Sequence record: MW331437.1
Length of the DNA stretch: 44,551 bases
From: Escherichia phage phiWAO78-1
Direction: 5' to 3' (one strand)
Part shown: positions 8,824 to 39,034 of the stretch, one piece after another
Numbering within the stretch: the stretch's first letter is position 1
Layout: the number at the start of each line of letters is the position of its first letter
Position numbers and translations under genes: made by a program
Notes under the pieces: model-generated
What the model saw: the letters and a program-made list of their open reading frames with translations, nothing else
What the model was told of the DNA's origin: nothing
The model's database searches: none

Positions 8824-9195
8824 ATGGCTAAGACCGGAAAAGGCTTGCCGCGAAGCCTTCAGAATGTCGACTTCGGCGACCTGGATATCAGCGTAGGCTG
8901 GGGAGAAGTAACAGGTAAACCGGCGGTAATCGCCGCGGGGGCGACCCAAGAGGCGGCCCGTACCGCTATTGGTGCAGGTACGTCAAGCCTTGTGATCGGA
9001 ACAACTTCGACTACCGCGATGGCCGGGAATAAGTTCGTTCAGGGCACTGCGGTTACCGACGTCGGCTCGCAGACCGTTACCGGTGAAGAGGCCGCCGCGG
9101 TTGCTACGTCCGCACAGACTGCGGTTAACGCAGTAGGCACTAAACTAAACGAACTTCTGGCGCAGCTTCGTGCCGCTAAAATCATCGCATCCTGA
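8824..9195 (+). CDS. Hypothetical structural protein (possible head decoration/fibre protein)
   Basis: 123 aa Ala/Thr/Gly-rich ORF with AAGAGG SD after the capsid gene. Confidence 0.4.
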   Translation: MAKTGKGLPRSLQNVDFGDLDISVGWGEVTGKPAVIAAGATQEAARTAIGAGTSSLVIGTTSTTAMAGNKFVQGTAVTDVGSQTVTGEEAAAVATSAQTAVNAVGTKLNELLAQLRAAKIIAS

Positions 9196-9206
9196 GGAGA
9201 TTAAAA

Positions 9207-9548
9207 ATGGTTGATGTAATCAAACGTCGTATTAACGGTGTGTCCGCCGATACCGTAGGTGTTAAAATCGATATGGCAAATATCGCCCCTGCGTCTTTTT
9301 CCACCCCACTGAACGCCACAACGGCAGTAACCTCCGGGCAGACGATGACTCTTACCGTAGTTGTAGCTGGTGGACTCGAGCCGTACTCTTACCAGTGGTA
9401 TAAGAATAACAACGCTATCCCTGGTGCTAACGCCGCCACCTACGAGAAAACTTCGCTCGCTACCACCGATTCTGGTACGTATAAAGTGGTCGCGCAGGAT
9501 GTGTATGGTAATATTATCTCCAGCAGCACTGTAGCAACTGTGTCTTAA
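9207..9548 (+). CDS. Ig-like domain-containing protein (putative)
   Basis: Motif YSYQWYKNNNAIPGANAATYEK...DSGTYKVVAQD resembles immunoglobulin-like domains; GAGGAG SD. Confidence 0.45.
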   Translation: MVDVIKRRINGVSADTVGVKIDMANIAPASFSTPLNATTAVTSGQTMTLTVVVAGGLEPYSYQWYKNNNAIPGANAATYEKTSLATTDSGTYKVVAQDVYGNIISSSTVATVS

Positions 9549-9584
9549 TGCAACGGCCCTTCGGGGCCGTAATAAGGAAAGGTC

Positions 9585-9764
9585 ATGGCAGATAATTACG
9601 TAATCCGCGAAAAGTACACCCGCGTTGACATTGTTGACGGTCAGGTGATGCCTGTTCGCGGCGTTGTAGAAGCGGGTGAACTGGTTGCGACTCAACCGGA
9701 CAGCGAAGAAGCGCACAACAACGGCGGCGGTACTAAGCGTCGTCGCCGTAAGTCAGAGGAATAA
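9585..9764 (+). CDS. Small hypothetical protein (59 aa)
   Basis: Just below the ORF-track cutoff; AAGGAAAGG SD before ATG 9585; C-terminal basic tail; fills the gap between flanking genes. Confidence 0.3.
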   Translation: MADNYVIREKYTRVDIVDGQVMPVRGVVEAGELVATQPDSEEAHNNGGGTKRRRRKSEE

Positions 9765-9767
9765 TTT

Positions 9768-10295
9768 ATGTCGCTAATCGTGGAAACGGGAGAAATCGTC
9801 CCTAATGCTGACAGTTACGTTAGCCTGGCTGACGCCCGCGCGTTAGCGGCTAATTACGGTCTTGAGCTACCGGCGGACGATACCGCCGCAGAGGTGGCCT
9901 TGCGCAACGGCGCTACCTATGTCGGGCTTGCAGAACCGCAGATGTGCGGTCGCCGGGCGTCAGCAGAACAGTCTCTGGCGTACCCACGCACCGGCGTTAC
10001 GTTAAACGGGTTCCCTGTAGCAAACAATGCCATCCCGAAACAAGTAATTCTTGCGCAGGTAATCGCCTCCGCTACATATGGCGCTGGTACTGAGGTGCGG
10101 GCTAACTCAGACGGTCGCTCTGTGCAGACTGAGCGCGTAGAAGGCGCAGTAACCGTCACCTACTTCAACAACGGCAACAGTGGCGCTACGACCGCGATAC
10201 CGCTGCGGACGACGCTTTACGCCCGTTACTGTGTGGTGGTCTTAACAATGGCTTCTCGTTTAACGTGTACCGGGGTTAAAAATGGCGAAGACTAA
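9768..10295 (+). CDS. Head-tail connector/adaptor protein (putative)
   Basis: N-terminal ADSYVSLADARALAANYG resembles the start of gp6-like head-tail connector proteins; position between head and tail genes. Confidence 0.4.
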   Translation: MSLIVETGEIVPNADSYVSLADARALAANYGLELPADDTAAEVALRNGATYVGLAEPQMCGRRASAEQSLAYPRTGVTLNGFPVANNAIPKQVILAQVIASATYGAGTEVRANSDGRSVQTERVEGAVTVTYFNNGNSGATTAIPLRTTLYARYCVVVLTMASRLTCTGVKNGED

Positions 10296-10896
10296 AACAG
10301 AGATGTTCGCCCTTATCGGGACAAATCTCGCAGATAATACAACTGGCGCTATAACGCCTGAGTTGTTGCGCGAGGTAAACACACAGTTAGCGGACTCCAT
10401 GCTTTACGCTGCGTCAGGCGTGAAAGAGGTTGAAGTTCTCCGTGCCGCGGCAACCGTGATACAAGCGCCTACCGCAGTAGATACAGCATTGCAGTTAACT
10501 TTTGGCTCCGCTCAGGGCAGCGTGTCAGACCCGGTAATGCTTAATGCTGCGGGGCTGGTTACGTTCAACACTGCGGGTAACTATGCCGTTCGCATCAAGT
10601 TACAGGCCGGGCGCACTGGGGCAAGCGGCACGTCTATCCTGTTATCGCGTATTCTTATCAACGGTGCTCAGTATGGCTCACCCGCCGCTACGAAACTGGT
10701 AAGCGCGGATACCACAATCCCGATTGAATCTCGTGTCGTTATTAGCCCAACAGCAGGCCAGACGTTTGCCGTTCAGATTATGCGAGATAGCGCCGGAAGC
10801 GACTTCGGCGGTGTATATCCGCAAGCGGCTACCGTAACCGCATGGGGCACAGCACCGTCTGCACTACTGGTTATTTCGAGACTGGAGGCCGCGTAA
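10282..10896 (+). CDS. Hypothetical structural (neck) protein
   Basis: 204 aa ORF in the collinear late operon, overlapping neighbours. Confidence 0.4.
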   Translation: MAKTKTEMFALIGTNLADNTTGAITPELLREVNTQLADSMLYAASGVKEVEVLRAAATVIQAPTAVDTALQLTFGSAQGSVSDPVMLNAAGLVTFNTAGNYAVRIKLQAGRTGASGTSILLSRILINGAQYGSPAATKLVSADTTIPIESRVVISPTAGQTFAVQIMRDSAGSDFGGVYPQAATVTAWGTAPSALLVISRLEAA

Positions 10897-11255
10897 TGAG
10901 CACCGCTTTCAGTAGACGTATGCAAGGCGTGGGCACACGCCTGCTAACTAAATTCGGCAGCACGGTATCTCTGATTCGCGCTGGCTCGAAAGTGTGGGAC
11001 GAAGTCCTCGGCGAGTACGTCTGGTCCGCGGATGAAGTGTTGCCGTTGAATACTGTACCAGTTCCGGTTAATGCGGGACTGGTAAACGGTACGACGATTC
11101 AGGCTGGCGATATGATTGTTAAAGCGGATTGCAGTGTCGTTCCGAAGATGGAAGATAAGGTGCAATTCGGCGGCAAGCAATGGTCTGTCGTAGCCATCGA
11201 GAAGAAGATGATTAATGATGATGCCTTGGTCTACTTTATTCAGGTGAGAAAATGA
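10896..11255 (+). CDS. Hypothetical head-tail joining protein
   Basis: Start at ATG 10896 overlapping upstream stop (TAATG); ORF open from 10842. Confidence 0.4.
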   Translation: MSTAFSRRMQGVGTRLLTKFGSTVSLIRAGSKVWDEVLGEYVWSADEVLPLNTVPVPVNAGLVNGTTIQAGDMIVKADCSVVPKMEDKVQFGGKQWSVVAIEKKMINDDALVYFIQVRK

Positions 11256-11647
11256 GTTTCGCGCTTGATGTCTCTAAGTTCGTGGAAAAGGCGAAGAAGA
11301 ACCCCGAGAAGGTGATGCGTCAGGTGTCTATCAAGCTGTTTTCCGCTATCATAAAGGCGAGTCCGGTAGATACAGGCCGATTCCGTATGAACTGGATGGC
11401 ATCTGGTGGAACTCCTGCCTCTGGAACTACAGACGCTACGGATAAATCAGGAAACACGGCAACCGGAAACGCTACAAGTTTCGTACTGAAAGCCACCGAC
11501 TGGCGCGAGTTCACGCTGACTAATAACCTGCCATATGCGCAACGGCTGGAGTACGGTTGGTCGCAACAGGCCCCGCAAGGTGTGGTAAGGACTAATATAT
11601 CGCGTTTCCAGCAACTCATTAACGAAGAAGCCAACAAGGTGAAATGA
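11252..11647 (+). CDS. HK97 gp10-like tail component (putative)
   Basis: Motif PVDTGRFRMNW resembles the conserved DTGRLR motif of HK97 gp10-family proteins. Confidence 0.45.
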   Translation: MSFALDVSKFVEKAKKNPEKVMRQVSIKLFSAIIKASPVDTGRFRMNWMASGGTPASGTTDATDKSGNTATGNATSFVLKATDWREFTLTNNLPYAQRLEYGWSQQAPQGVVRTNISRFQQLINEEANKVK

Positions 11648-12060
11648 TGGGCTACTTTGAGGACTTAACAAAAGCGTTTGATGTGCCGCTGGTAGCCTTC
11701 GGAACCACCAACGGCATCAAGGTTGCGCTTGAAAACATCGACGCACCTACATCAACCGATACGCCGTATCTGGCGAGTTACATGTTGCTGGCAGATACGG
11801 AACAGGCGGATTTGTTCTTCACGGAACAACGCTCTGGTATTTATCAGGTAGACATTAACTACGCATCGGTGAAAGGTAGCGCGTCAATCAATAAAATGGC
11901 AGACTTACTTAACACGGCATTCAAAGCAGGTAAGTCATTTTCACGTAACGACATCTGCGCCGAGGTTCAATCGGTTAGCCTGGGGCCGCTGATTGTAGAA
12001 AACGGATGGGCCAAACGACCATTGTCAATTAACTTTATTGCATTCACCAAGAGGCTGTGA
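11644..12060 (+). CDS. Hypothetical tail protein (possible tail terminator)
   Basis: 138 aa ORF immediately upstream of the putative major tail gene. Confidence 0.35.
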   Translation: MMGYFEDLTKAFDVPLVAFGTTNGIKVALENIDAPTSTDTPYLASYMLLADTEQADLFFTEQRSGIYQVDINYASVKGSASINKMADLLNTAFKAGKSFSRNDICAEVQSVSLGPLIVENGWAKRPLSINFIAFTKRL

Positions 12061-13233: not shown

Positions 13234-13260
13234 AAGGCCCCTTTTGGGGCCTTTCTTCTT
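13234..13260. terminator. Bidirectional rho-independent terminator (AAGGCCCC-TTTT-GGGGCCTT)
   Basis: 8-bp stem with T-tracts on both strands between convergent genes ending at 13229 and 13259. Confidence 0.7.
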
Positions 13261-13813
13261 ACAAACCTAATTTTAAAGCAATGTCTATAACGTTCGATTT
13301 AACGTCACCCGGTATGATATATGTGTCGCAATCTTTTACACCATCAACATCATACAAGTAACCACGGCTATCCCCGTCAAACGTATAGCCGTCTCGGTGC
13401 AAGCGAACAATTCGCACTTCATGCCCAGCGGCGACGATAGGAGCCACTTCACTGGCGAACCCACCGTCGGACACTACAAAAACTTCGTCGCCGTCGGGCA
13501 AGTTTTCAGCAAGATACTTACCGAAATAATCATCGCCGAATACCGGTTTAATGAATTGTTCAGAGATAGCAATCATGAATTGACGGCGAGACAAACCATT
13601 AAGGAATCCTTCTGGCTTTTCTTTCCGCGCCCGGTCGTCGTAGCCGTCGAGAAACTCGTGGTAAGCATCCGGGCCTAACGCTGCCAGAGCGATATTGAAC
13701 ATTGGATTCTTGAAACTGGTAGTTCCTTTCGCAAAGCCCATTTCTACCAGTGCCATAGCAAGTGTGTCTTTCCCGCAACCCGCAGGGCCATTAAGAATAA
13801 TTACATTAGCCAT
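13259..13813 (-). CDS. P-loop nucleotide kinase, deoxynucleoside-monophosphate-kinase-like
   Basis: N-terminal Walker A LNGPAGCGKDT at residue 7; size and GKDT loop resemble phage dNMP kinases (T4 gp1 type). Confidence 0.55.
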   Translation of the reverse strand: MANVIILNGPAGCGKDTLAMALVEMGFAKGTTSFKNPMFNIALAALGPDAYHEFLDGYDDRARKEKPEGFLNGLSRRQFMIAISEQFIKPVFGDDYFGKYLAENLPDGDEVFVVSDGGFASEVAPIVAAGHEVRIVRLHRDGYTFDGDSRGYLYDVDGVKDCDTYIIPGDVKSNVIDIALKLGL

Positions 13814-14298
13814 TATTTATCGCTCCCATGTGATTTTAAGCGTGTAGAGTTCCCGTTACAGTCGTATTCAGTAACCGCGTGCGTCGTGATTCCTAAGCCA
13901 CGGAAATGCTTAATCACCGCTGGCGAGTCGTCGAATGCACACAAGATTCTTTCCAGTCCGATAGCGCGCAACACCTCTTCTTTAATTACGATGTCTTTTC
14001 TGTTGTCGTGTTTGCTACGCATGATTAACTGATAAAATTCGACGCGGTGGCGCTGCAGCCACATTCTGGTTTCTTTTTCTGCATCATCACTGCGACCGGT
14101 TAAAATAATAACGGCGTATCGCCGATTAAGGGCGTTACATAGTTCGATATTATCTCTAATTGGCTCATCGTCTTTGCACGCCATGTTAAATGGCCTCCAA
14201 GCCCATGTTTCGCCGTAGTTATCTTTTGGCAGCAGGTGTAAACGATGTGTACCATCTGCTAATGTCCCGTCTAAATCGAAAATTACAATATCTTTCAT
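13813..14298 (-). CDS. HAD-superfamily phosphatase/hydrolase
   Basis: N-terminal motif I IFDLDGTLADG (DxDGT nucleophile motif) typical of HAD phosphatases. Confidence 0.6.
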   Translation of the reverse strand: MKDIVIFDLDGTLADGTHRLHLLPKDNYGETWAWRPFNMACKDDEPIRDNIELCNALNRRYAVIILTGRSDDAEKETRMWLQRHRVEFYQLIMRSKHDNRKDIVIKEEVLRAIGLERILCAFDDSPAVIKHFRGLGITTHAVTEYDCNGNSTRLKSHGSDK

Positions 14299-15317
14299 CC
14301 CAGCATCTCCGGTGAAATAGTTAAACGCGCAACCTCGCCATATTTGGCGCTATAAGTAATTACATTTGCGCTACGGCCCGACATCCATCCGCCGCGGGAG
14401 GCGTAGGCGTCTTTAGCCGCTAAGGTGCGGTGTTGCTCAACAATCATGTTACGGCTTTCTACAATCTTCTGATGGTGCAGGTGACCTACGTGTGCGTAGC
14501 TGTAGACGCTCTCGCCGAACGCTTTGCGGAACTTGGCAATCATAACTGGTTCGATAGCGTCGAATCGCGCCTTGTGTCCGTGGGTAAAGAACAGCGTCGT
14601 TTTGCCGTGCTGCACCATCTTGTAAACATCCGGCGACGTATCGACGAACACACGCGGCTCATTGTCGTACAGCGTACTGAACATCTCAGCCAACCAAATC
14701 ATACCCGATTCGTCGTGGTTCCCTTGCACGATAAGCAGTCGGACGTTTTTATGTTTAACGAGCGCCATATCAACAACACGGCGTACCATACGAATCATGT
14801 AGCGGACAAGTTTCTGATAACGGGTGTCGGCGTCAAGAGCGTGACCGCTTGCAGGTGTAACGGCAACCAGACTATCGAAGTGCGCGAAGTCGCCTAGCAG
14901 GTTAATAACTCCGGTCCCAGCGTCCGGCGCTTTCTGAAACGCCTCGTCGAACCATCGGGAGAACAGGCCCTCCGCGATTTTCATATCCCAGTCGTCGCCG
15001 CTCTCGTCGGCCCAGGCCAGCATACCGAGATGGAAATCAGACACAGTGTAAAGATTGAGTAGTTTATCGTCGCGTTTGGCGCGAATGGTTTTAACAGGTG
15101 CAACGGGGGTAATCTCTGACTTCATGCCTTCAATTACGGCTTTCATCAACTCGACCTGACGTTCGGCGTCGGTTTCTGTCTTAACCCATTGCAACTTAGT
15201 ATTGCCGAGTTCGTCCACCAGAGACGACGTCCCCTTAATCTTGTAGCCGTCCGGGACAAGGTGACTAACGTCGCGACCGTGACCTACGCCTTTCTTGGCC
15301 AGCTCGCTTTCGGACAC
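14295..15317 (-). CDS. Calcineurin-like metallophosphoesterase
   Basis: Ordered motifs D-x-H (VSDFHLG), GD (LLGDFAHFD), GNH[DE] (VQGNHDE), FTHGH and GHLHH; GTG start; roughly 80-aa N-terminal extension before the first motif. Confidence 0.7.
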   Translation of the reverse strand: MSESELAKKGVGHGRDVSHLVPDGYKIKGTSSLVDELGNTKLQWVKTETDAERQVELMKAVIEGMKSEITPVAPVKTIRAKRDDKLLNLYTVSDFHLGMLAWADESGDDWDMKIAEGLFSRWFDEAFQKAPDAGTGVINLLGDFAHFDSLVAVTPASGHALDADTRYQKLVRYMIRMVRRVVDMALVKHKNVRLLIVQGNHDESGMIWLAEMFSTLYDNEPRVFVDTSPDVYKMVQHGKTTLFFTHGHKARFDAIEPVMIAKFRKAFGESVYSYAHVGHLHHQKIVESRNMIVEQHRTLAAKDAYASRGGWMSGRSANVITYSAKYGEVARLTISPEMLG

Positions 15318-15423
15318 GAATTACGCGGTCTGAGATGCCGTATTTACGGGCTATATCGATAGTTTTAACTCCGGCGTTCAATTCTTCCTGTAATTGTTCG
15401 TCGGTTATTTTCTTCTGGGCCAT
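15265..15423 (-). CDS. Small HTH-containing protein (52 aa), overlapping the 5' end of the metallophosphoesterase ORF
   Basis: ATG 15423 with GAGGAAG SD; sequence TIDIARKYGISDRVIRVRKRA looks like a helix-turn-helix; different frame from 14295-15317. Confidence 0.3.
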   Translation of the reverse strand: MAQKKITDEQLQEELNAGVKTIDIARKYGISDRVIRVRKRAGQERRRSRSRR

Positions 15424-15461
15424 GCTTACTTCCTCGTGTTTAGGATTTGTCCTATACTAGC

Positions 15462-15653
15462 TCACTTCTCGTTAACATTCGAGTTGCATGCCCAGATTAA
15501 AATAAAGACCCACGGCAGCAGAATCCAACCAAGAAACAGATTGGCCATGAATATCGCCAACTTCGCTTTATGGTTGCGGAAATACGCAACCAGGAAAGGT
15601 GCGAAATAAGCGAGCAGCGCAAATAGAATTAGGGAAACCGGTAAACTTGACAT
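15462..15653 (-). CDS. Superinfection-immunity-like small membrane protein (Imm family-like)
   Basis: 63 aa, two hydrophobic segments; motif YFRNHKAKLAIFMANLFLGWILLPW resembles the superinfection immunity protein family; first gene behind promoter element C. Confidence 0.55.
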   Translation of the reverse strand: MSSLPVSLILFALLAYFAPFLVAYFRNHKAKLAIFMANLFLGWILLPWVFILIWACNSNVNEK

Positions 15654-15680
15654 TTTAAACCCCTTCGTTGTCGGTGTAAG

Positions 15681-15713
15681 TGAATAGTACCCTATTATAT
15701 TGGGGCGCGCAAG
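15681..15713 (-). promoter_or_regulatory. Class-1 conserved promoter-like element, copy C
   Basis: CTTGCGCGCCCCAATATAATAGGGTACTATTCA on the minus strand, about 30 nt upstream of ATG 15653. Confidence 0.6.
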
Positions 15714-15819
15714 TAATGTGATAGAATAATTTTGCGCCTAGTGTCGCACACGAAAAGCGGGTGGTTCCCGTCTGGCGCAACACCATCAACCAGTAACCTC
15801 TTAACCAAAGGATTAAAGA

Positions 15820-16236
15820 ATGAAACTTTCTGATTTTTATTTCGAAGAGAAAGCACTGGTAGGCAAGAAGATGCCGATTCTGCTACCAAACGGCGAAGAC
15901 TCCGGTGAGTGGCTTAATGTTGTAGGCCCTGATGCGGATGCCGCCGTTAAAGCGGGGCGGGCTTTCATTATCGCGTACCGCCGCGGGTTGGCGCGTTTTG
16001 AAGAACTGGAAAAAGCCGCCAAAGAATCCGGCGACTATACTGAATATAACCTGGCGGTTAACGAACTGGCGGAAGACCTCAACCGACAACTCGCATCGGA
16101 AGTCGTAAACGGCTGGAGCTTTGATGAGCCTTTCTCTAAGGAAGCGCTTAACAAATTGCTGGATCAGTTCAAGGCATTGGGTACACAGGTGGCGGCGTTC
16201 CATAACGACGAGCGCAAAGCATTACAGGAAAAGTAG
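15820..16236 (+). CDS. Tail assembly chaperone (putative)
   Basis: 138 aa acidic ORF immediately upstream of the tape measure gene. Confidence 0.5.
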   Translation: MKLSDFYFEEKALVGKKMPILLPNGEDSGEWLNVVGPDADAAVKAGRAFIIAYRRGLARFEELEKAAKESGDYTEYNLAVNELAEDLNRQLASEVVNGWSFDEPFSKEALNKLLDQFKALGTQVAAFHNDERKALQEK

Positions 16237-16601
16237 ACGCGCTGTACAGGTTCGCCACCTACGAGTTTGTGGATAAGCATAAAATCAGAGAGTTTGATTC
16301 TATAGCCGACGGACACGAACAGGCGCTTATCGCGATGGGTGTAATCGATAAGAAAAAACGTGCAGCGCGACGGGGTGGGCCGGAATGCCCGCCCCTTTTT
16401 ATATCCACCTTTGAGACGTATTGCGACATTAAGTTTACGCGACACGTGCGCGAGGACGCTGTAGTATTGTTTGCAAGAGAATCCGTTACGTGGCAAGACC
16501 TGAAAGCCTATCTCGATGTTACGCAAAAACAGCTTAGCCTGTTCGAGATAGACATTATCATGGGCTTAGAAGCAATCTTTGAAGGTAGAAATCATGGCTG
16601 A
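16206..16601 (+). CDS. Tail assembly chaperone -1 frame extension (candidate programmed frameshift product)
   Basis: Frame -1 relative to 15820-16236 is open from 16206 and runs to 16601, overlapping the upstream ORF's last 10 codons; candidate slip site G-GAA-AAG at 16227-16233; no SD before the GTG at 16269. Confidence 0.4.
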   Translation, partial: RRAQSITGKVDALYRFATYEFVDKHKIREFDSIADGHEQALIAMGVIDKKKRAARRGGPECPPLFISTFETYCDIKFTRHVREDAVVLFARESVTWQDLKAYLDVTQKQLSLFEIDIIMGLEAIFEGRNHG

Positions 16602-25515: not shown

Positions 25516-26909
25516 TTCTTACCTCTGCGCTTCATATAATTAAGTAGTTCGTCCTGTACAGACCTTTTCTCGTCTGTACGCGCGGCGACAACTTCATCAA
25601 GAGTATCTCTGGCTATTATTTGGTAAATGAATACAGACCGTTTGTACCCAGATTGCATCTGCCTTACTGGCCCTATGCGCTCGATAACCTGCAAATAGTG
25701 TTCCAGGTTCCACCCCTGACTTATAAATGCCATGTGATGCCCGCCGTGTTGTAGTGACAGCCCGTGACCTGCGGAGGCCGGGTGTATCAGGAGCATAGGT
25801 ATTTCACCGCGGTTCCACGCTTCCATCTGCTTATTGCCCTTCGCGCCTTTAGCAAACGCCTGTGCCTGCGGGAATCGCTTAAGGATGCGCTCCAGTTCGT
25901 GCTTAAACTGATAGGCCACCAGCAACGGAGCACCCTGTAGCTCCTCAACAATGGACTCAAGCGCATCAAGCGCATCAAGTTTCGTGTCGTGCACTTTCTC
26001 CCATTCTTTGGTTGCTTCGCCGTCTGGTCCTGACACATATACGGCGCCGGATGCAATCTGCAAACACTTAGACGTCTTCGCCGCTGCGTTAGCCGCTTCG
26101 ACTTCTCCGCTCTCCAGTTCCGCAAATAACTTTTCCTCCATATCGATGTACGCCTGTCGCGCTTTCTTCGGCAGGTCGATTTCAACCGGTACGATAATCG
26201 GCGCTTCGCACCCGAACCACTCGGCGGCGTCAATCGTGAGACTAATGTCCTTCATCTTCTGGTGAATTTCATTATCCGCACCGGGGCGAGCATGATACTC
26301 GCGCGCCATTGCCGACTTACCTTTCTGTACCGAGTTAAACCAGCGGTCGGTGAATGCTGTGTACGATGAGCCGAGGCGCTCGCCAGCGTCGATAAACCAG
26401 TTCTGCCCCCACAAGTCTTTTAGGCCGTTTGGTGATGGTGTGCCCGTCAGGTTGATGAAACGCTTAACCTTACCGAACGCAACTTTGCTAAGTGCCTTAG
26501 CTCTCTTGCTACCACCAGACCGGCTGCGGAATGATTTAAGTTTCGTGCTCTCATCGGCAACGATAACAGTAAAAGGCCAGTCATCTTTGCCGTAGTAGTC
26601 AATCAGCCATTCGATAACTTCATAGTTAGTGCACACCACATTAGCGTCTGACTCCAGAGCCTCGATGCGGCGCTTCTCTGAACCGGTCGCATCTACGACA
26701 CTCAGGCATGGAAATCGCCATTTCTCTTGTTCTGCGGGCCATGTGCCGGATGCGACGCGCAACGGAGCGAGGATTAACACGCGGTCGTCGTCCGTAAGCT
26801 GCCCGTTGCGGAACAGGCGGTTTAATGCCCACAGTACGCTGCCAGTCTTCCCGGCACCCATGCTTGCCCATATGTTGCAGCGATGGTGCCGCAACATGAA
26901 CGAGGTCAT
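25512..26909 (-). CDS. SNF2-family (superfamily 2) helicase
   Basis: Walker A SMGAGKTGS, DExx-type box VIVADESTKLK, LTGTPSPNG, and C-terminal helicase motifs. Confidence 0.75.
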   Translation of the reverse strand: MTSFMLRHHRCNIWASMGAGKTGSVLWALNRLFRNGQLTDDDRVLILAPLRVASGTWPAEQEKWRFPCLSVVDATGSEKRRIEALESDANVVCTNYEVIEWLIDYYGKDDWPFTVIVADESTKLKSFRSRSGGSKRAKALSKVAFGKVKRFINLTGTPSPNGLKDLWGQNWFIDAGERLGSSYTAFTDRWFNSVQKGKSAMAREYHARPGADNEIHQKMKDISLTIDAAEWFGCEAPIIVPVEIDLPKKARQAYIDMEEKLFAELESGEVEAANAAAKTSKCLQIASGAVYVSGPDGEATKEWEKVHDTKLDALDALESIVEELQGAPLLVAYQFKHELERILKRFPQAQAFAKGAKGNKQMEAWNRGEIPMLLIHPASAGHGLSLQHGGHHMAFISQGWNLEHYLQVIERIGPVRQMQSGYKRSVFIYQIIARDTLDEVVAARTDEKRSVQDELLNYMKRRGKK

Positions 26910-26936
26910 GAGCTTCTGGTACTCGCGCCTTTGAAC

Positions 26937-27620
26937 TTAGACATGATTAGCCTCGTAAACTGCTTTTGCGAAACCCCGCGGAGTAAGGCTGCGGATTGTT
27001 TTTGTTCTGGCGCTCTTTCCGCCGAGTTTAGCCCAACCAGGGTTATCTCCGCTGCCCACGGCAACCTCGGCAACGTCGGGCATAACAAACCCATTTCCGA
27101 CCCACAGGCACGTCTTTTTAACATATGCGTCCCGCGCCGGGATAACGTCAGGGAACATTGGATGGGTGTCGTCTTCGGGTAAATAGCCGCCGTATTCGTA
27201 CGGGTTGAACGCGTAGTCAGGCTTACGCCATAAAGACGAAAGAACGCTAACAGGGTTCTCAATCATATAAGGTACGTTGTACTTTTTAGCCAGACGCGCC
27301 GCCACTTTGCATGTAATCACGGCCTCTACCTGGAACGTCGGATTCTTCTTCCGCTTCGTTTCAAAATGCGCCGCGCCGCTAACGGCTAAATCTGTGCACG
27401 GAGGGAACTCGAAAATAATATCCGGCGCGACCTCGAAGTCGAATTTATTATCAATCCACGCGTTTATATAGTGGATATTTTCATGTTCAACTTTTGCGCC
27501 CAATCGTGCGTAGTCTCCGTGGTCGGCGCCGTCGTAGTTGAAACAATAGCAAGTATGGCCCGCTTCTGCCCACGGTTGGGCCATAAGGCCCGAGCCGTCA
27601 AACAATGACCAGACAATCAT
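26937..27620 (-). CDS. DNA (cytosine-5)-methyltransferase-like protein
   Basis: FxGxG (SLFDGSGLM), PC motif (FPPCTDLAVSG) and ENV-like (MIENPVSV) in the canonical order; short (227 aa), so target-recognition region is small. Confidence 0.5.
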   Translation of the reverse strand: MIVWSLFDGSGLMAQPWAEAGHTCYCFNYDGADHGDYARLGAKVEHENIHYINAWIDNKFDFEVAPDIIFEFPPCTDLAVSGAAHFETKRKKNPTFQVEAVITCKVAARLAKKYNVPYMIENPVSVLSSLWRKPDYAFNPYEYGGYLPEDDTHPMFPDVIPARDAYVKKTCLWVGNGFVMPDVAEVAVGSGDNPGWAKLGGKSARTKTIRSLTPRGFAKAVYEANHV

Positions 27621-38825: not shown

Positions 38826-38996
38826 ATGAAACTGAATGACATCGTAACCTGGACCGGTAGAAACGGAGAAAAGCGATTCGGGCTTATTGTTGCATCAAAC
38901 GGCAACAAGTACCGTGTTATGCGATGGCGTCAGTGGGCACGACGCCAGAGGTACTACTGGATTCGCAGTGAACGTTTATCTTTAAAACACCAATAA
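38826..38996 (+). CDS. Hypothetical small protein (56 aa)
   Basis: ATG 38826 with AGGAGA SD (ORF open from 38715). Confidence 0.35.
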   Translation: MKLNDIVTWTGRNGEKRFGLIVASNGNKYRVMRWRQWARRQRYYWIRSERLSLKHQ

Positions 38997-39001
38997 AATT
39001 T

Positions 39002-39034
39002 CTTGCCACTGGGATAGAATAGGCTACTATTCAT
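39002..39034 (+). promoter_or_regulatory. Class-1 conserved promoter-like element, copy E (diverged)
   Basis: CTTGCCACTGGGATAGAATAGGCTACTATTCAT keeps TTGCC, the AATAG-N4-CTATT dyad and TACTATTCA; 27 nt upstream of ATG 39062. Confidence 0.45.

Follow-up and report, generated by a model that had tools for sequence, protein, structure and literature searches.

The minus-strand interval 15423..14295 of Escherichia phage phiWAO78-1 is one gene, encoding a helix-turn-helix (HTH) module followed by a metallophosphoesterase (MPE), and its reading frame is interrupted by two single-base deletions that are private to this genome (record MW331437.1, whose whole stretch of 44,551 nucleotides is called the window here). 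The deletions are probably errors of sequencing or assembly rather than mutations. With these bases missing, the first frame (frame A) meets a stop after 52 codons and the remainder shows up as a 340-codon open reading frame (ORF) in the +1 frame. What looks like an overlapping HTH gene, and like an N-terminal extension of the MPE, is a by-product of the frame break. If the break is indeed an error, the phage would make a normal protein of 376 amino acids (aa) by ordinary translation.

Two reading frames and two missing bases

In the ORF map of the window, a 52-aa HTH ORF runs on the minus strand from ATG 15423 to TAG 15265, and a 340-aa MPE ORF runs from GTG 15317 to TGA 14295, its stop sharing bases with the start codon of the following gene (ATGA). 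An earlier, sequence-only reading of this DNA had described the small HTH ORF as having a good Shine-Dalgarno (SD) sequence and the phosphoesterase ORF as overlapping it from GTG 15317 with a frame offset of one nucleotide, and both descriptions are confirmed. Indeed, GAGGAAG ahead of ATG 15423 gives an SD duplex with a dG of -6.5 kcal/mol, and the MPE ORF lies in the +1 frame with respect to the HTH ORF ((15423-15317) mod 3 = 1). In particular, the MPE frame is open from 15320, which creates a 56-nt overlap with the frame of the HTH ORF (15320..15265), and the bases shared by the two ORFs from the GTG onwards are 15317..15265. No SD sequence was found before GTG 15317 (duplex dG +0.4). The same reading had placed the first catalytic motif about 80 residues after this GTG, a distance that needs correction as SDFHLG begins at residue 93 of the ORF.

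The gene measures 1129 nt in the window versus 1131 nt for the coding sequence (CDS) of relatives. Alignments resolve this difference into two single-base deletions 7 nt apart, with CCG-AAAGCGA-GCTGG in the window versus CCG[T]AAAGCGA[A]GCTGG in relatives (Table 1). One 2-nt deletion was also considered and rejected, as a single gap costs four mismatches while two 1-nt gaps leave none between them, and blastn also places two gaps. Within 15265..15309, the changes that distinguish the window from its relatives sit at third positions of the MPE frame.

Table 1. Features of the HTH-MPE gene and of its cassette, in window coordinates (residues in 376-aa numbering)
Feature	Position	Strand	Basis or remark
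Promoter-like site by the immunity gene	15722-15694		
Superinfection immunity protein, upstream gene	15462..15653	-	Pfam Imm_superinfect E=1.3e-12; phrog_1039
Shine-Dalgarno GAGGAAG of the single native gene	15429..15435	-	sequence reading; SD duplex dG -6.5 kcal/mol; annotated CDS start of relatives is the equivalent ATG
Native codons 1-38, frame A, N-terminal three-helix HTH, MAQKKITDEQLQEELNAGVKTIDIARKYGISDRVIRVR	15310..15423	-	phrog_704 1-48; base-for-base alignment to codons 1-38 of 376-aa orthologs
Spurious 5' head of the 340-aa ORF, GTG + SESE	15303..15317	-	no SD; not the native start; relatives read these bases in frame A as ..IRVRKAK..
Frame-break zone	15303..15311	-	T absent between 15311/15310, A absent between 15304/15303; relatives CCGTAAAGCGAAGCTGG, window CCGAAAGCGAGCTGG; alignments, genome-wide indel catalogue
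Out-of-frame tail of the 52-aa ORF, K-RAGQERRRSRSRR*	15265..15309	-	translations; frame-break by-product, unconserved as coding sequence
Native codons 42-376 and stop, frame B: linker and beta-hairpin region, then MPE domain	14295..15302	-	phrog_704 43-389, E=2e-153; 94-96% aa identity to relatives
MPE motif I, SDFHLG (D130, H132)	15024..15041	-	invariant in 85 diverse homologs
MPE motif II, LGDFAHFD (G178, D179, H182)	14874..14897	-	invariant in 85 homologs
MPE motif III, QGNHDE (N236, H237)	14709..14726	-	invariant in 85 homologs
MPE motif IV, THGHK (H282)	14571..14585	-	invariant in 85 homologs
MPE motif V, VGHLHH (G314, H315, H317)	14472..14489	-	invariant in 85 homologs
HAD-type PNKP-like phosphatase, downstream gene	13813..14298	-	Pfam HAD_PNKP E=5e-19; phrog_415
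P-loop dNMP-kinase-like protein, 184 aa, last cassette gene	13259..13813	-	phrog_139 E=3e-45
Terminator-like hairpin after the dNMP-kinase-like gene	13234-13253	bidirectional	

A single uninterrupted gene in the relatives

The PHROG profile phrog_704 (390 positions) covers both ORFs end to end, the HTH ORF matching positions 1-48 (E=4e-6) and the MPE ORF positions 43-389 (E=2e-153), and the ORF pair is not due to chance because this single profile spans both contiguously. In the Kagunavirus phages RP180, K1ind2, BUCT825 and fTaEco01 the gene is annotated as one 1131-nt CDS of 376 aa, and an intact 376-aa gene is also present in three metagenome contigs that are 93-97% identical to the window. 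Among 75 IMG/VR loci, the gene is full-length and in a single frame in 72 and frameshifted in none, the remaining three being cut by the contig end or too diverged at the N-terminus for alignment. The best 120 database proteins are 376 aa long, except for three of 406 aa, and each of the best 40 phage records has 2 nt more than the window at the frame-break zone. The frame offset was thus seen in 0 of more than 200 relatives examined. Upon restoration of the two bases, the protein is identical to its nearest orthologs (L009-L011) at 368 of 376 positions (97.9%), with 24 synonymous and 8 non-synonymous codon differences and 26 of 33 base changes at third positions; the joined frame is under purifying selection.

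The phrog_704 family, labelled 'DNA repair exonuclease', corresponds to the ORF19-type protein of Kagunavirus/Jerseyvirus (Guernseyvirinae), as in K1ind2 (YP_009597352) and RP180 (YP_009821857); its members are named at NCBI 'winged helix-turn-helix domain-containing protein' or 'metallophosphoesterase'. Like these proteins, the window gene lies in the interval between the immunity gene and the PNKP-like phosphatase gene, encodes HTH, linker and MPE over 376 aa, and, once repaired, is 95-98% identical in amino acids to 120 database members. Unlike them, its ORF is interrupted by the two 1-nt deletions, which yield 52-aa and 340-aa ORFs in different frames. The family trait of a single uninterrupted ORF of ~376 aa was found in all relatives examined and is broken in the window at 15311/15304. 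The window gene is filed here as a frameshifted copy, or a sequence error, of a phrog_704 member and not as a separate kind.

The broken form was also looked for directly. The deleted junction had no match in IMG/VR and JGI metagenomes, searched with exact and degenerate patterns over viral and metagenome contigs, while the intact junction, serving as positive control, gave 22 matches in IMG/VR contigs. Exact look-ups of five products, namely three frameshifted ORFs as they stand (the 52-aa, the 340-aa and a 175-aa adaptor) and two shorter MPE restarts (308-aa and 283-aa), found none on record.

Sequencing error or recent mutation

The first alternative to an error is that both deletions are real and represent a recent frameshift allele, null or hypomorphic, of an accessory gene in this phage lineage. 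Such an allele, which is considered unlikely, would produce a 52-aa HTH peptide made of 38 native residues and a 14-aa out-of-frame Arg-rich tail and, at most, an additional HTH-less, N-truncated phosphoesterase re-initiated at a codon such as GTG 15218 or ATG 15146. GTG 15218 lies 47 nt past the HTH stop and is preceded by AAGGGGA (dG -8.3), and the downstream 335-codon frame is intact in the sequence as given. The same downstream sequence is, however, without visible degeneration, its changes from the nearest orthologs being mainly at third positions, and two independent 1-nt deletions 7 nt apart represent an unlikely mutational path. The allele was, moreover, found nowhere else in the junction and product look-ups. 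The HTH-MPE gene belongs to a variable accessory cassette whose neighbours vary between relatives, and therefore a real loss-of-function allele would be tolerated.

A second private frameshift, a 1-nt deletion at 10198/9, breaks the head-tail adaptor gene. The 26 aa beyond this site, read in the other frame, are 100% conserved, and each of the best 25 records is 1 nt longer than the window; a broken structural gene with a fully conserved C-terminus is difficult to square with a viable phage. Because of this further private deletion, the indels are read as assembly or sequencing errors or else as very recent mutations. At least three private single-base deletions are present in conserved coding sequence of the assembly, and therefore other ORF oddities in it deserve equal suspicion. 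In the indel catalogue against relatives, only two annotated genes are broken in the window. Further apparent non-3n indels were listed at 13255, 15780, 26931, 34172 and 39002/39007, four of these five sites being intergenic or promoter-like DNA. In the BUCT825 annotation, site 26931 lies in the opening codons of the helicase gene; it was rejected as a window-private indel, as K1ind2 agrees there with the window and BUCT825 alone departs from it.

Some features of the local sequence speak for real mutation. Long homopolymers are the classic context of sequencing errors, and the deleted bases of the HTH-MPE gene lie outside them. Three of five private deletions fall in a (T)TTAC context; a systematic basecalling error linked to this motif was rejected, as the window shows no depletion of TTTAC or TTAC in comparison with four relatives. 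Reads would be needed to separate a sequencing error from a real mutation of very recent date.

A variant of the real allele would combine the deletions with a residual output of full-length HTH-MPE, made by +1 frameshifting at a low level where the 56-nt overlap has rare Arg codons (AGG/CGA/CGG), or with a two-product locus giving a free HTH peptide and an untethered MPE re-initiated at GTG 15218. This combination is very improbable; if true, the residual frameshifting or the two-product locus would show gene fission, or incipient recoding, in progress.

Recoding and separate genes

The sequence-only reading had offered two explanations for the overlap, one of them a recoding event that fuses a DNA-binding head to the phosphoesterase. 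Programmed or hungry-codon +1 frameshifting within 15320..15265 would require an MPE frame that is +1 to the HTH frame and open early, as it is from 15320, and could draw on the codons AGG (twice), CGA and CGG in the frame-A tail, which are rare in E. coli. The shift is, however, neither needed nor conserved in any relative, since all of them encode the fusion in one frame, and the overlap is an out-of-frame reading of conserved coding sequence. At the codon level, the P-site codons before AGG or UAG (GAA, CGU) are unable to re-pair in +1, and codon-by-codon reading of 15320..15265 revealed neither a known +1 slip motif (CUU-U, CCC-U or UUU-Y ahead of a stop or hungry codon) nor a stimulator. 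The longest homopolymer in this interval is AAA, and both a programmed +1 frameshift and transcriptional slippage were rejected for want of a slip motif, of longer homopolymers and of an arrangement conserved in any relative. The likeness to +1 frameshifting of the prfB/RF2 type is one of geometry only, consisting of a short upstream ORF with a stop and a continuation in +1, whereas the window has no slip codon and its arrangement occurs in no relative. The frame offset exists only in the window, through the loss of two bases that no other sequence searched shares, and recoding is very improbable. The overlap and the possible recoding signal stem from a 2-nt deficit in one genome, and neither an overlapping gene nor a frameshift site should be recorded on their account.

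The other explanation, two separate and translationally coupled genes, one for a small HTH regulator and one for an MPE that begins at an internal Met, takes the ORF map at face value and can invoke the good SD before ATG 15423, but it is very improbable, as GTG 15317 has no SD, the family profile describes one continuous protein, relatives translate HTH and MPE as one in-frame 376-aa ORF, and the HTH-MPE linker (…KAKLAKKG…PDGY.IKG.S.L…QWVK) is conserved in distant homologs, which would be unexpected of an intergenic or overlap region.

Domains and predicted function of the native protein

The 376-aa protein consists, in order, of a three-helix HTH (~8-44), a short conserved linker with a beta-hairpin, a helix and a binuclear MPE domain. 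In an AF2 model (pLDDT 82, pTM 0.72) the N-terminal helices span residues 8-16, 21-28 and 32-44. Pfam matches to this region among 85 family members include HTH_1 (17/85), HTH_8 (11/85), Sigma70_r4_2 (9/85) and GerE (4/85), those of the window itself being weak (E=0.03-0.15), and the family profile matches the GerE structure 1fse at E=0.035. As modelled, the N-terminal module fits the HTH class, with a tri-helical arrangement resembling GerE or sigma-70 region 4, and is predicted to bind DNA; it is conserved across distant homologs.

Motifs I-V of the calcineurin-like MPE superfamily (D-x-H, G-D-x-x-H/D, G-N-H-D/E, H, G-H-x-H) are all present. Pfam Metallophos and Metallophos_2 match the MPE ORF, both just under the gathering score; NCBIfam and PADLOC gave no matches, and phmmer and profile searches gave no significant PDB match (SbcD E=0.9, GerE E=0.035). 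The MPE fold is confirmed, with the Mre11/SbcD and PolD DP1 nucleases as its nearest folds, and because of this proximity the protein is probably a DNA-directed nuclease. In particular, it may be a nuclease dependent on Mn2+ or another metal that the HTH tethers to DNA. The earlier suggestion of an HTH head on a DNA-targeted phosphoesterase thus holds for the family, given the conserved HTH and the nuclease-like fold, and is not supported as regards recoding as the route of fusion.

The nuclease-domain fold is shared with Mre11/SbcD (T. maritima Mre11, 3qg5; S. aureus SbcD, 7dog; E. coli SbcD, 6s6v) at an identity of only 12-18% and with no significant sequence match (profile E=0.9). Unlike these proteins, the window protein has an N-terminal HTH and stops at the MPE core (residue 376), the AF2 model showing no evident Mre11-type capping domain. 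A gene for a Rad50/SbcC partner was found neither in the cassette nor in the annotations of the whole genomes of four relatives. The PolD small subunit DP1, a 3'-5' proofreading exonuclease (5ihe), and the inactive eukaryotic B-subunits carry an N-terminal OB fold in place of the HTH; unlike DP1, the window protein does not belong to a D-family polymerase, the phage polymerase being of family A.

Other known systems for comparison are stand-alone binuclear MPEs that act as DNA nucleases. An MPE of Pseudomonas putida is a Mn2+-dependent ssDNA endonuclease (6nvo; PMC7826289), and the MPE-like Gp48 of mycobacteriophage A10ZJ24 is reported to disrupt the integrity of host genomic DNA (PMC12287305). 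Gp48 offers an earlier example, from a phage, of disruption of host DNA by an MPE-like protein in the early phase of infection. In one database record, a near-identical ortholog bears a name taken from 'Nuclease MPE'.

The fusion of an HTH to an Mre11/SbcD-like MPE is real and already annotated, and the family that carries it is very large in phages and prophages (4630 clusters at 50% identity, E<=1e-3). The literature searched yielded neither a characterisation of this HTH-MPE family nor a paper specific to phosphoesterases of Kagunavirus or Guernseyvirinae. The PNKP-like phosphatase gene is translationally coupled to the MPE gene via the ATGA overlap, and the co-location of MPE, PNKP-type phosphatase and dNMP-kinase-like genes suggests a module for host-DNA breakdown or nucleotide salvage. 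Alongside the products of these adjacent genes, the HTH-MPE protein may serve phage DNA metabolism through host-DNA breakdown or nucleotide salvage, or through recombination.

One gene across two open reading frames

The two overlapping ORFs of the sequence-only reading are present as it described them, with their one-frame offset and a good Shine-Dalgarno sequence before the 52-aa helix-turn-helix (HTH) ORF (table). The 340-aa metallophosphoesterase (MPE) ORF lies in the +1 frame relative to it and is open from 15320 only, with a TAA just before. It does start at GTG 15317, where no Shine-Dalgarno sequence was found (dG +0.4), and SDFHLG, the first of its metallophosphoesterase motifs, starts at residue 93 instead of after the roughly 80 residues proposed. 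Both ORFs are spanned end to end by a single family, phrog_704 ('DNA repair exonuclease', 390 profile positions): in profile searches the 52-aa ORF corresponds to positions 1-48 (E=4e-6) and the 340-aa ORF to positions 43-389 (E=2e-153).

Features of the HTH-MPE region and of the Ad1 gene
Feature	Position	Strand	Remarks
52-aa HTH ORF	ATG 15423 to TAG 15265	minus	reads MAQKKITDEQLQEELNAGVKTIDIARKYGISDRVIRVRKRAGQERRRSRSRR, then stop
Shine-Dalgarno GAGGAAG of 52-aa ORF	15435..15429	minus	dG -6.5, good
340-aa MPE ORF	GTG 15317 to TGA 14295	minus	
Four-gene accessory cassette	13234..15722	minus	between tail-tube and tail-chaperone genes; order imm, HTH-MPE, HAD PNKP/NT5C-like phosphatase, dNMP-kinase-like P-loop protein
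Promoter-like site	15722-15694	minus	cassette start
Bidirectional terminator	13234-13253		cassette end
Head-tail adaptor Ad1 gene	9768..10295	+	private 1-nt deletion at 10198/10199

The window holds the entire genome of a Kagunavirus-type (Guernseyvirinae) siphovirus and shares about 90% identity with K1ind2, K1G, RP180, BUCT825, JSSK01 and others. At the homologous position, RP180, K1ind2, BUCT825 and fTaEco01 carry a single annotated CDS of 1131 nt (376 aa), flanked in these four relatives by a superinfection-immunity gene and a PNKP-like phosphatase gene, and the window has 1129 nt from ATG 15423 to the stop. In the alignment, the relatives' junction ...CGT ATC CGT AAA GCG AAR CTG GCN AAG AAA GGC... 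(I-R-K-A-K-L-A-K-K-G) faces CGT GTC CG-AAA GCG A-G CTG GCC AAG AAA GGC in the window, with a T missing after 15311 and an A missing after 15304, and it is this net 2-nt deficit that produces the +1 offset between the ORFs. A single 2-nt gap was rejected, as it needs four mismatches against none between two separate 1-nt gaps. The locus is a conserved, already annotated single gene, and two absent bases break its frame in this one assembly; the overlapping HTH gene or recoding site, though real as sequence, is not a biological feature. The proposal of two coupled genes, with the enzyme starting at an internal Met, is contradicted by the family that spans both ORFs and by the relatives' single 376-aa CDS.

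With both bases put back, the 376-aa product is identical at 368 positions to its closest orthologs. Codon differences from these are 24 synonymous and 8 non-synonymous, third codon positions taking 26 of the 33 base changes, and the comparison with K1ind2 gives 92 synonymous and 17 non-synonymous. Within the apparent overlap, the aligned differences sit at third positions of the phosphoesterase frame. This third-position and synonymous bias indicates that, until the present, the sequence has evolved in a single joined frame. Neither the Arg-rich last 14 residues of the 52-aa ORF nor the 'VSESE' that opens the 340-aa ORF is a coding feature; both come from reading the gene out of frame.

The gene is intact, at 376 aa, in all three metagenome contigs that carry the window's exact HAD phosphatase (93.5-97.3% identity to the window over 4-6.5 kb). 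The junction region is 2 nt longer than in the window in each of the 40 best of 429 matching phage records, and among 75 IMG/VR loci that encode a relative, 72 give a single-frame full-length match, the remaining three being cut by contig ends or having an N-terminus too diverged for alignment. The best 120 of 1729 database homologs are 376 aa long, except three at 406 aa. Written with degenerate wobble positions, the deleted junction had no exact match in viral or metagenome collections, and the intact junction written in the same way matched 22 IMG/VR contigs. A gene-position index has no record of any of the five products looked up, namely the three frameshifted ORFs unaltered and two shorter MPE products from later starts. 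Judging from these comparisons, the break is not shared by the other sequences examined.

Sequence error or mutation

All ORFs of four complete relatives were compared with the whole window by tblastn, and an indel catalogue was drawn up; only two annotated genes, HTH-MPE and the head-tail adaptor Ad1, proved frame-broken. At the Ad1 site the window reads GAT-ACC versus GATTACC or AATCACC in relatives, the other frame (window 10199..10276) conserves the last 26 residues of the relatives' Ad1 at 100%, and the 25 best phage records are all 1 nt longer. The Ad1 deletion is probably a further sequence error of this assembly. Errors of sequence or assembly that went uncorrected are the simplest explanation of the private deletions, and a reasonably likely one, since three single-base losses fall in strongly conserved coding sequence, one of them in a structural gene, and no downstream decay was seen after any of the three. 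The same facts speak against a genuine, very recent double deletion, which we regard as rather unlikely even though the HTH-MPE gene belongs to an accessory cassette that otherwise varies in gene content among relatives, the deleted bases lie outside long homopolymers, and the suspicion of a systematic error tied to TTTAC was not confirmed. Were the sequence real, it would be expected to yield a 52-aa HTH peptide in which helices 1-2 and the beginning of the recognition helix are native. A second product might be an enzyme lacking the HTH, made by re-initiation at ATG 15146 or at GTG 15218 (preceded by AAGGGGA, dG -8.3).

Two other sites emerged. Another two single-base deletions private to the window lie 5 nt apart in the intergenic, promoter-like stretch 38995..39015 (window AAAATTT-CTTGC-CACTGGGATAGAAT versus AAAATTTACTTGCACACTAAGATAGAAT in K1ind2 and BUCT825), and they repeat the pattern of two nearby 1-nt deletions in the phosphoesterase gene. 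Next to the DNA helicase start, at 26887..26976, the window seems to lack 1 nt when compared with BUCT825; this deletion is not private, the window matching K1ind2 exactly there, and it marks a boundary of differing gene content among relatives.

Recoding and frameshift sites

Fusion of the HTH to the phosphoesterase by recoding, also proposed from the sequence, would need a +1 shift somewhere in 15320..15265, which the 52-aa ORF reads as CGU GUC CGA AAG CGA GCU GGC CAA GAA AGG CGU AGG UCA CGG UCG CGA CGU UAG. Programmed recoding in this phage is very unlikely, because this stretch has no P-site codon able to re-pair in +1 ahead of a stop or rare codon and no CUU-UGA slip site of the prfB type or CCC-UGA, and because no relative conserves the two-frame arrangement. 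Transcriptional slippage was rejected, the longest homopolymer being AAA.

The ORF for the tail assembly chaperone, 15820..16236 (+), has CAG GAA AAG TAG at its end; the -1 frame stays open between 16206 and 16599, reaching the start of the tape-measure gene (region 15820..16601, +), and K1ind2 and fTaEco01 have a joined (frameshifted) CDS annotated there. This site, around 16225..16236, is the genuine conserved -1 frameshift site of the genome family; it lacks a canonical X XXY YYZ heptamer. A joined (two-piece) CDS annotated at K1ind2 9019..9770 for the tail-completion/Neck1 protein (ORF14A/B; window counterpart about 10896..11650, +) suggests that this phage group makes another conserved product by frameshifting or fusion.

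The intact protein and its cassette

Clustered at 50% identity, the large HTH-MPE family has 4630 clusters for E<=1e-3 and 1148 for E<=1e-30. Most are 370-420 aa long, and prophage copies, for example in Burkholderia pseudomallei, are among the members. Across 85 diverse members D130, H132, G178, D179, T190, N236, H237, H282, G314 and H317 are invariant, T190 being the only one outside the five binuclear metallophosphoesterase motifs; a linker, …LAKKG.…PDGY.IKG.S.L….QWVK…, is also conserved. Member N-termini match HTH_1 (17), HTH_8 (11), Sigma70_r4_2 (9) and GerE (4, E down to 2e-8), and the family profile matches GerE (1fse) weakly (E=0.035). An AlphaFold2 model from 81 sequences (pLDDT 82.4, pTM 0.72) predicts helices 8-16, 21-28 and 32-44, a beta-hairpin 61-85, a helix 87-103 and the MPE sandwich 119-376, with Foldseek matches generic for the superfamily (Rv0805, Mre11, DP1, GpdQ, LpxH).

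That the HTH belongs to the phosphoesterase, with the DNA targeting this implies, appears to hold for the family, given the relatives' single 376-aa CDS and the N-terminal HTH matches of family members. The best-supported mechanism would be a metal-dependent phosphodiesterase held on DNA by the HTH head, and so presumably a nuclease rather than a small-molecule enzyme. The protein is not a bona fide Mre11/SbcD, since its model has no evident capping domain and no Rad50/SbcC partner appears in the cassette or in the annotations of four relatives' genomes, both of which mark that group. Precedents exist by activity or type of enzyme rather than by demonstrated close kinship: the MPE-like Gp48 of mycobacteriophage A10ZJ24, a phage precedent for action on host DNA, is reported to disrupt host genomic DNA integrity (PMC12287305), and ssDNA endonuclease activity has been characterised for P. 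putida MPE (PMC7826289).

An ATGA overlap joins the MPE gene to the HAD PNKP/NT5C-like phosphatase gene. Phages T4 and T5 break host DNA down and reuse its nucleotides, and on this basis, together with the gene context, we speculate that the cassette may serve host-DNA breakdown or nucleotide salvage. Bas73 and JSSK01 keep the MPE, and unrelated small genes replace the phosphatase and kinase.
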